Assembly: GCA_964016885.1 (NCBI GenBank)
Contig: CAXHJY010000671.1
Coordinates: 1 to 64,000, forward strand
Direction of reading: 5' to 3'
DNA from: Eledone cirrhosa
Taxonomy: Eukaryota
DNA: 64,000 bases
In this document: piece by piece, positions 47,008 through 54,941 of the stretch
Numbering within the stretch: the first letter of the stretch is position 1
How the letters are laid out: each line of letters opens with the position of its first letter
Notes under the pieces: generated by a model
Told to the model about the DNA's origin: nothing
The model's input: only the letters and a program-made list of their open reading frames with translations
Database searches by the model: none
Program-made: the position numbers and the translations under genes

Positions 47008-47100
47008 ATATTGTTATATTTGGGGAGGGTCATATTGTTATAATATTGCCAGAAATATTAACACACTCATTGTTTGGTTGGTTTTCGCGAAAACCACCAG
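47008..47100 (+). mobile_element. family E diverged fragment
   Basis: atattgttatatttggggagggtcat..ttgcca..ttggttggtt matches the family E arm. Confidence 0.5.
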
Positions 47101-47197
47101 AAGGCTGAGCTCAAGCCGTTTCGACGGCTATTTTCTGAGTCCAGAAATAGCCGTCTAAACGGCTTGAGCTCTACCGTCGGGGTCATACTTTTTCCTA
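47101..47197 (-). mobile_element. family A hairpin, copy 4 (tail lost)
   Basis: ggctgagctcaagccgtttcgacggctattt..ccagaaatagccgtctaaacggcttgagctctaccgtcggggtcatac. Confidence 0.75.
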
Positions 47198-47500
47198 TAT
47201 ATACATATATAATAGAAAAAAAATAGAAAATACTAGAATGTACACCCCAGTACCAACATCAATAAACCTGAAAGACCCACACCACACCCTTCGTGGGAAG
47301 AATGTGGGTTTCAGATTAATCCAGGTGTAACCATTTGTAATTATTTCGCAGTTGACTTAATGGTGTGAGAGTGATGTATTACTTACTGACATCCCCACTA
47401 CCACCACCATCACCATAACCACCACCACTACCACCACCACCACCACTTGCCACCGCCACCACCTCTACCTATCTATCTCGTGTTATTATTTTTACACAAG

Positions 47501-49097: not shown

Positions 49098-49136
<39 letters not shown>

Positions 49137-49140
49137 GATG

Positions 49141-49191
49141 AGATTCTACAGGACTAGAACTGTTTCATTCTTTAGAAATCATCAGGAATCT
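49141..49191 (-). ncRNA. type I hammerhead ribozyme, family B
   Basis: agattc-CTGATGA-tttc-taaa-gaat-GAA-ACAG-ttctagtc-CTGT-A-gaatct. Helix I shows a compensatory pair change relative to the 54443 copy (gattc/gaatc vs gcttc/gaagc). Confidence 0.8.
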
Positions 49192-49497
49192 GGGTATCAA
49201 AAAATAAATATGGTATTTATAGGTCTCTACAAGTGGTAGGAGAGGGTGGGGAGTGGGATGGGTGTAGGTCATTGGTTGATAGAAAAGGGAATTCATTAAA
49301 AGCTAATTCTACAAAGCTATAGTTTATTTTTATTAATTTTTGTTTTTAGTAACAATATATATAATGTAATCTGAGTTTTTCGAACATTAATAATAATATT
49401 ATTCGGTTGCTTTGCAATTATGCAAATAAGCCTCATTTTTAAAGCCATGTCAGTAGAATGAGCCCCTCATTCTTGCTCTTGCGTTGGCATGTAAACA

Positions 49498-49547
49498 GAA
49501 CTGCAGACATTGATGTTTCTGGGTATTACCCTTCATCAGTACAGTTC
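49498..49547 (-). ncRNA. type I hammerhead ribozyme
   Basis: gaactgta-CTGATGA-a-gggt-aat-accc-a-GAA-AC-atcaat-GT-C-tgcagttc. 8-bp helix I, GUC site, near-palindromic helix III. Confidence 0.8.
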
Positions 49548-53498: not shown

Positions 53499-53611
53499 CA
53501 TAGATATGTGTGTGTATATATATATGTATACATTTATATATACACTTATATGTATATATGTATATATGTATAATATATAAGATCAAAAGATGGTTAAAGG
53601 AGTTCCATGTA

Positions 53612-53678
53612 TTTTATTATGCGCATTTCAAAAACAAACATCATCATGCAATAATATTTGTGTTTTCATCAGATAAAA
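53612..53678 (-). ncRNA. hammerhead ribozyme, family D (left arm)
   Basis: Reverse complement of 53798-53864. Confidence 0.78.
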
Positions 53679-53797
53679 CAGGAGAACATGATATGAAGGC
53701 TAAAAAAAACACTTGTGGATAGTGCAGTTTTAAATCAACATATCAAAACTGCACTATCCACAAGTGTTTTTTTTAGCCTTCATATCATGTTCTCCTG

Positions 53798-53864
53798 TTT
53801 TATCTGATGAAAACACAAATATTATTGCATGATGATGTTTGTTTTTGAAATGCGCATAATAAAA
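53798..53864 (+). ncRNA. hammerhead ribozyme, family D (right arm)
   Basis: ttttat-CTGATGA-aaacacaaatat..atgtttgttttt-GAA-ATGCGCAT-A-ataaaa. Confidence 0.78.
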
Positions 53865-54085
53865 TACATGGAACTCCTTTAACCATCTTTTGATCTTATA
53901 TATTATGTATACTCCAGTCCTACAAACTGTAGAGTGCTTCTTATCCGATATCTGCATTGCTTTATTGTACTACAATAAAACTCACCTCCTACATTATGTA
54001 TATATGTATATATATATATTTATATTCAATGATATTAATTGAATATCCCGTTTGCCTATATATATTTATATATGTAATATTTATA

Positions 54086-54117: not shown

Positions 54118-54310
54118 GGAAAAGCGTCAGAACCCCGACGGCAGAGCTCAAGCCGTTTCGACAGCTATTTCTGGACTGAAATAGCTGTCGAAACGGCTCG
54201 AGCTCTGCCGTCGGGGTTCTGACTCTTTTCCTATTACCCACTCTACTACCCAAAGTATTGAGTACTCTGATACGTTATGGTCCACCTGGTTCTTTACCAC
54301 ACTTCCTTCG

Positions 54311-54312: not shown

Positions 54313-54382
<70 letters not shown>

Positions 54383-54388
54383 GAAGGA

Positions 54389-54437
54389 GCTTCTACAGGA
54401 CTAGTACTGTTTCATTCAGATGAAATCTTCAGGAAGC
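54389..54437 (-). ncRNA. hammerhead ribozyme, family B (left arm)
   Basis: Reverse complement of 54443-54491. Confidence 0.78.
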
Positions 54438-54442
54438 TCAGT

Positions 54443-54491
54443 GCTTCCTGAAGATTTCATCTGAATGAAACAGTACTAGTCCTGTAGAAGC
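54443..54491 (+). ncRNA. hammerhead ribozyme, family B (right arm)
   Basis: gcttc-CTGAAGA-t-ttc-atct-gaa-t-GAA-ACAG-tACTAGTc-CTGT-A-gaagc. Palindromic loop III, GUA site. Confidence 0.8.
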
Positions 54492-54578
54492 TCCTTCTAT
54501 AAAATAAAAAAATTTTACTCTGCCATGTATTGAGTACCTTACTTACTGTGGTTATCCCCGACTCAACCCGGGACCTAC

Positions 54579-54625
<47 letters not shown>

Positions 54626-54634
<9 letters not shown>

Positions 54635-54941
54635 AGGACAAAAGATGGTTAAAAGAGTTCCATGTATTTTATTATGCGCATTTCAAAAACAAATATCATC
54701 ATGCAATAATATTTGTGTTTTCATCAGATAAAACAGGAAGACATGATATGAAGGTTAAAAAACACTTGTGGATAGTGCAGTTTTAAATCAACATTTTTGA
54801 AATGCGCATAATAAAATACATGGAACTCTTTTAACCATCTTTTGTTCTTATATATTATGTATACTCCAGTCCTACAAACTGTAGAGTGCTTCTTATCCGA
54901 TATCTGCATTGCTTTATTATACTACAATAAAACTCACCTCC

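Follow-up and report, generated by a model that had tools for sequence, protein, structure and literature searches.

The hairpin at positions 54376-54504 of the window, that is, the whole 64,000-nucleotide stretch of Eledone cirrhosa DNA analysed here, is almost certainly the stub of a Penelope-like element (PLE) of the Hydra clade and represents its pseudo-LTR end. The most probable account of its formation, to which we assign a probability of roughly 0.6, is an abortive Hydra-clade PLE insertion in (TA)n in which two run-off cDNAs were joined head to head. As a self-antisense ribozyme, the description under which it had initially been annotated, it is an ordinary by-product of PLE integration; the palindromic hairpin itself is real and abundant, and its kind is already known.

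Architecture and hammerhead core of the hairpin

The hairpin is a perfect inverted repeat with 62-bp arms (54376-54437 and 54443-54504) and a 5-nt loop, and its folding z-score against 200 shuffled sequences is approximately -24. The plus-strand arm (54443-54504) is a sense pseudo-LTR arm that begins at the 5' edge of the family, while the minus-strand arm (54376-54437) is an inverted, 5'-truncated and tail-less pseudo-LTR arm, a layout also found at sister loci; its outermost five bases (54376-54380) overlap a T run. A one-sided PLE tail at 54511-54580 (plus strand) corresponds to sequence that lies directly upstream of the ORF in long copies. The left flank (54314-54380) consists of the (TA)n target followed by the T run, and the right flank (54580-54633) is (TA)n target that also borders the next insertion, which belongs to family D. 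In the junction loop (54438-54442), G and A precede the minus arm and G and T precede the plus arm, the parent carrying C and A; these bases are probably cap-derived or untemplated. The copy at 54376-54504 is identical to the family sequence.

The initial annotation placed a whole ribozyme in each 62-bp arm, and both the coordinates and the perfection of the arms are borne out: the plus-strand hammerhead occupies 54443-54491 (C3 at 54448, cut predicted after 54486) and the minus-strand one 54389-54437 (C3 at 54432, cut predicted after 54394). Since any perfect inverted repeat containing a ribozyme has it twice by symmetry, its presence on both strands gives no information beyond the palindrome, and what needs explaining is the existence of the palindrome itself.

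The hammerhead of each arm comprises CUGAAGA, a U10.1-U11.1 mismatch, a 3-bp helix II, GAAA, a 4-bp helix III, a palindromic loop and a GUA cleavage triplet, with a helix I of 5 bp on the plus strand and of 7 bp, including two loop bases, on the minus strand. The type I core (CUGANGA/GAAA/NUH) with its three helices is complete, and positions 10.1 and 11.1, paired in type I hammerheads, carry the U-U mismatch. At least four hammerhead families of the genome that are unrelated in sequence have this mismatch (L051, L221, L247 and window positions 54448 and 36195); it is listed as a natural tolerated variant (PMC3088659), and corresponds to the usual state of the Hydra hammerheads tabulated in PMC8557442, which have U on both sides of helix II. 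A compensatory helix I pair separates the hairpin family (family E) from its sister subfamily, a copy of which, with the compensatory change and a conserved TATA box upstream, lies at 49133-49230 on the minus strand. Among the 150 listed of 398 Rfam matches there was no hammerhead model, and only sub-threshold miRNA hairpin models fell on the site.

Similar to the minimal hammerheads of PLEs (Cervera and de la Pena 2014, PMC4209133), the ribozyme is of type I, with a short helix I and a palindromic loop III suited to dimerization, whereas helix III has 4 bp here instead of 0-2 and U10.1-U11.1 takes the place of G-C. The same source describes low, dimer-dependent activity of PLE hammerheads, as well as paired hammerheads in Schistosoma that lie on opposite strands at distances of 100-700 bp. 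Type I hammerheads of other families also occur in the window, at 6518-6556, 23062-23107, 49506-49539 and 54673-54727 on the minus strand and at 21869-21923 on the plus strand, the one at 49539 having an A-A mismatch at 10.1-11.1.

Genome-wide copies and affiliation with Hydra-clade elements

A 24-mer from the arm has 2,853 exact matches in the genome, compared with 0 for the control. The first 100 matches form 76 clusters, and 21 of the 24 close pairs among them are arranged head to head, 16 of these within 103 bp. The copies reside in (TA)n, and the 70-bp tail is present on a single side of them; one tail was present in 11 of 12 two-armed loci and two tails in none of the 12. The shortest arms measure about 30 bp, and the longest are inverted copies that flank 4-6 kb of element. 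The junctions of 52 two-armed inserts comprise 29 overlapping ones, 4 blunt ones and 19 with inserted bases, and an identical junction was found with the tail on either side (L001 and L002 versus L007) in different sub-lineages. The junction of the present hairpin is found again in another sub-lineage, there with the tail on the other arm. The whole ribozyme is present on both arms in just 22 of the 52 inserts, as expected for a by-product. Searching DNA with the tail alone yielded no candidates, and exact patterns were used instead. Three same-strand tail matches about 1,060 bp apart at G000:C1:118475562-118477704 possibly represent a tandem array of a short derivative.

Long copies run upstream through a microsatellite-rich UTR into the ORF, and among eight loci picked for long ORFs, seven have the identical ribozyme and tail before and/or after an RT/GIY-YIG-like ORF, in direct tandem in L070 and inverted in L066 and L067. 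By motif pattern, the ORF of L064 contains YRDD (356) and a GIY-YIG-like motif in two parts (595), together with RWR at 47, DKT at 125, CxCX5C at 576, CxxC at 676 and CxH at 704. RWK (which appears here as RWR), DKT, the CxCX5C linker, CxxC and CxH are given as marks of the Hydra clade in section 11 of PMC8557442. No significant RT or GIY-YIG match was returned by Pfam for the 433-aa C-terminal part of the ORF. The anatomy is likewise that of the Hydra clade, with a (TA)n target, an inverted 5'-truncated copy, a one-sided tail and a hammerhead in a pseudo-LTR linked to the ORF. It is from these motifs and this anatomy that membership in the clade appears highly probable. A second, more abundant Hydra-type ORF family (L061, 1945-3246, minus strand) shows about 78% identity and many open frames of 758 aa.

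Among C-terminal EN+ PLEs, the Hydra clade (including Hydra-1_Obim and Penelope-13_HM) resembles the element in its ORF motifs, its (TA)n target and its pseudo-LTR hammerhead with U flanking helix II. Inverted 5'-truncated Hydra-clade copies with a one-sided tail have been described (Craig et al. 2021, PMC8557442), and the same combination is found here; Penelope-13_HM has a hammerhead on both strands owing to an inverted copy (PMC8557442, File S2). By ribozyme sequence, however, the element represents a different family from Hydra-1_Obim, and it departs from the Hydra elements described in that study in having a tail of about 70 bp rather than 30-40 and a long, microsatellite-filled 3' UTR. 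It also forms many hairpins that are one ribozyme long and have a fixed 5' edge, for which no description was found in the sections of PMC8557442 considered here. The parental 3' UTR contains long (TG), (TA) and (ATTT) microsatellites that vary among copies (1.5 kb upstream in L035, L043, L049 and L058), and the element therefore spreads microsatellites. A non-LTR retrozyme, a class made of head-to-tail tandem units each with a hammerhead (definition from 10.64898/2026.07.22.740005), was considered and rejected, as the present structure is a head-to-head stub of a coding element.

Origin of the palindrome

In the proposed mechanism, the endonuclease would cut (TA)n, and two cDNAs would be primed on the two cut DNA ends, with reverse transcription beginning at two fixed internal sites, one at the pseudo-LTR end, about 60 nt from the 5' end of the RNA, and the other at the tail end, at about 140 nt. 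Each cDNA would run off the capped 5' end of the RNA, at a pol II start below a TATA box, and end-joining via microhomology or short templated inserts would then close the gap, so that in the joined product the two copies of the ribozyme would be trapped in a duplex. The family, the anatomy, the parent ORF, the independence of the junctions and the sharpness of the 5' edge are direct observations within this model.

A biochemical parallel is provided by in vitro work on Anolis Poseidon (Frangieh et al. 2024, PMC11167929), in which two internal start sites of the PLE reverse transcriptase delimit the tail, synthesis proceeds to the template 5' end, both target strands are cut and extended, and uncleaved RNA is the main template; inverted copies or a fixed 5' edge were not found treated in the portions of that study drawn on here. 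Ribozyme-cut RNA was rejected as a template for the present element, with 0 of 30 tail-anchored copies ending at the ribozyme cut site. The mechanism behind PLE inverted copies and one-sided tails has been named as an open question (PMC8557442), and with thousands of young, sharp-edged copies, twin priming can be tested directly against self-priming and a transcription start is predicted to the base.

The strongest alternative, which we consider unlikely, starts from the same PLE stub and derives the palindrome from self-priming or fold-back of a single strand, the edge being an RT stop at helix I of the ribozyme rather than the RNA 5' end. Head-to-head PLE palindromes have been reported before, and self-priming is the published reading of their junctions (PMC3846280). 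It would also suit the coincidence of the edge and helix I's 5' end in three families and the mirroring of one private variant in both arms of L014. The tail arm is equal or longer in 41 of the 52 two-armed inserts, as self-priming would favour, and these 41 fit twin priming and fold-back alike. In the other 11 the tail-less arm extends further 5', so that a simple fold-back of tail-primed cDNA is excluded for those inserts, some of which could be explained by later deletions. Self-priming is further opposed by loop-free perfect palindromes at a 4-bp site (7 of 52 inserts) and by single-armed copies (L051, L091 and L245) that stop at the same edge. Taken together, the variable junctions, the further reach of the tail-less arm in 11 inserts and the identical junction with swapped tails fit two primed cDNAs better than one that folds back.

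The 5' edge as a candidate transcription start

Among 30 position-ordered matches, 11 arms end at -7 to -5 relative to C3, 13 further 3', 1 at -37 and 5 at or beyond -74. A second sample, drawn from 40 of the 54 remaining clusters (two of which repeat earlier loci; long pairs and those already sampled were left out), gave 52 arms, with 17 ending at -7 to -5, 15 further 3', 4 between -8 and -60 and 16 beyond. Loci L001-L030, retrieved with a query that contained the loop, do not enter the edge and extra-G counts relied on here. In the parent, the first base of the TATA box TATAAATA lies 29 nt above the edge A (-6 from C3), and TATAAATA is kept in sister variants at 30 and 33 nt above the edge with a diverged spacer.

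Copying of a cap is expected to add an extra G. Among non-palindromic arms, a G in place of the parent's C directly before the edge was found in 12 of 19, 8 of 16 and again 8 of 16. An extra G was found in 1 of 5 arms keeping the A in the sister subfamily, 5 of 14 in family D and 3 of 5 in family C, so that these other families show it less strongly. The signal is modest, and the opposite arm's own sequence can often supply the G. In family D, the edge is an A in TCA context and is used by 14 of 26 arms, with the A kept in 14 of 14; lying 71 nt above the ribozyme core, this edge is argued not to be set by the ribozyme, which counts against an RT stop at helix I. A TATA box at -30 is absent from families C and D, and just 5 of 28 family C arms stop at the edge. 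A short spliced leader was also considered as the source of the loop bases and rejected, since the inserted bases are variable and in many cases duplicate neighbouring sequence.

The sharp edge thus probably marks the capped RNA 5' end, that is, the transcription start. This step, read from DNA alone, is the weakest part of the run-off mechanism. An RNA 5' end at this position would account for the arm length of exactly one ribozyme: transcription would begin at helix I, and the RT would start some 60 and 140 nt further downstream. PLE promoters have been placed in the pseudo-LTR (PMC2377424, PMC6765202); that of Penelope in D. virilis is internal and TATA-less (PMC2377424), and a TATA box plus initiator was noted in one pseudo-LTR (PMC3846280). 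The reading of the fold-back point as a transcription start was not found in the literature searched, and papers outside the open literature could hold it; what may be new is that the arms end sharply, 5-7 nt ahead of the core, TATA-aligned and often with a cap-like extra G. A broader proposal, to which we give somewhat less than even odds, is that short PLE hairpins are fossils of 'strong-stop' reverse transcription, in which the fold-back point would map the start site genome-wide and each abortive event would deposit a dsRNA template against the ribozyme end of the element.

Predicted folding and remaining explanations

The hairpin might instead be a mobile MITE-like or viroid-like unit copied whole, which is very improbable. 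Such a unit would be consistent with the hundreds of near-identical short hairpins expected from the counts and with the exact recurrence of some junctions, but neither the junctions nor the arm ends are constant, one junction is shared by inserts of different sub-lineages that bear the tail on opposite arms, and arm lengths grade up to whole-ORF inversions. The superficially viroid-like design that had been suggested is not supported: the layout is the insertion anatomy published for PLEs, made afresh with every insertion, and its junctions and arm lengths differ from case to case. Viroid-like RNAs are defined as circular RNAs that replicate through both polarities. Avsunviroid RNA is rod-like and carries a hammerhead in both of its polarities, and viroids use two different ribozymes in rolling-circle RNA replication, whereas the present case is a single ribozyme sequence duplicated in DNA and known from DNA alone.

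A marginally weaker candidate is a selected self-antisense ribozyme switch or a dedicated Dicer/ADAR substrate. A 62-bp perfect duplex is a plausible Dicer/ADAR substrate if transcribed. Small RNAs are also known from rotifer Penelope copies (PMC3846280). The predicted energy of the hairpin, at -111.7 kcal/mol compared with -30.9 for the best fold that retains the ribozyme helices, favours the rod by about 80 kcal/mol and leaves no second state for the conformational switch that had been proposed. The earlier expectation that, on either strand, the antisense arm emerges first is right, and prefix folding predicts that the ribozyme of the second arm pairs into the rod as soon as it is transcribed. 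For an isolated arm, the active monomer fold accounts for 0.2% of the predicted ensemble (<1%), while two isolated arms are predicted to prefer a double-hammerhead dimer (cofold -26.8 kcal/mol). The ribozyme in the hairpin is consequently predicted to be silenced (dead), not switching.

The restriction of two whole ribozymes to fewer than half of the inserts, as counted above, also speaks against selection for a switch or substrate, as does the window, in which no long open frame resembles a host gene or the element's ORF. Furthermore, an ADAR footprint was absent from 261 genomic hairpins, the mismatches numbering 429 G-T versus 434 A-C with no A-to-G polarity, and the lowest p among the 52 hairpins with at least 6 transitions was 0.02; heavily edited copies are under-sampled in this set because loci were found by near-exact matches. 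Lacking a TATA box, the stub would depend entirely on read-through for its transcription and would then fold as a non-cleaving rod, and it is through read-through that service as a Dicer or ADAR substrate is possible. If read through, the numerous perfect hairpins would add up to a considerable amount of dsRNA, in a group of animals whose RNA is known to be heavily edited.

Finally, an assembly artefact is practically negligible: perfect palindromes can arise in long-read libraries from fold-back chimeric reads and the window sits on a small contig, but copies on different chromosomes have the same one-sided tail and fixed ends, and contigs of other runs join the left and right arms, none of them spanning the whole stretch.

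Related insertions in the window

Families C and D had been described as sharing the layout of the hairpin, and the head-to-head repeats with one motif per arm are indeed present in both, but ribozyme activity in family C is doubtful. The family D insertion (53570-53906) has 162-bp arms at 53570-53731 and 53745-53906, with hammerheads at +53804 and -53672, a canonical core and a tail that extends rightward; 15,179 exact 28-mer matches to this family were counted in the genome. The family C insertion (35945-36264) has 147-bp arms at 35945-36091 and 36118-36264 with hammerhead-like motifs at +36195 and -36014, and the family has 28,945 exact 28-mer matches in the genome (window 35945-36264 and L192-L221). 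Its doubtful activity follows from the core, which reads CAGAAGA (U4A) with a CUU triplet throughout the copies examined, so the ribozyme may be inactive family-wide. In another family D insert (54626-54857), the sense arm is cut inside helix II, leaving a whole ribozyme on one strand only. An additional fold-back family, with a one-sided tail, a recurring junction region and no CUGANGA core in these copies, is found at 54120-54230, 35624-35744, 5461-5594, 47097-47198 and 14705-14784. The short motif GAGTAC or GAGTA is common to the tails of three families (54524-54555, 54254-54268 and 35852-35868).
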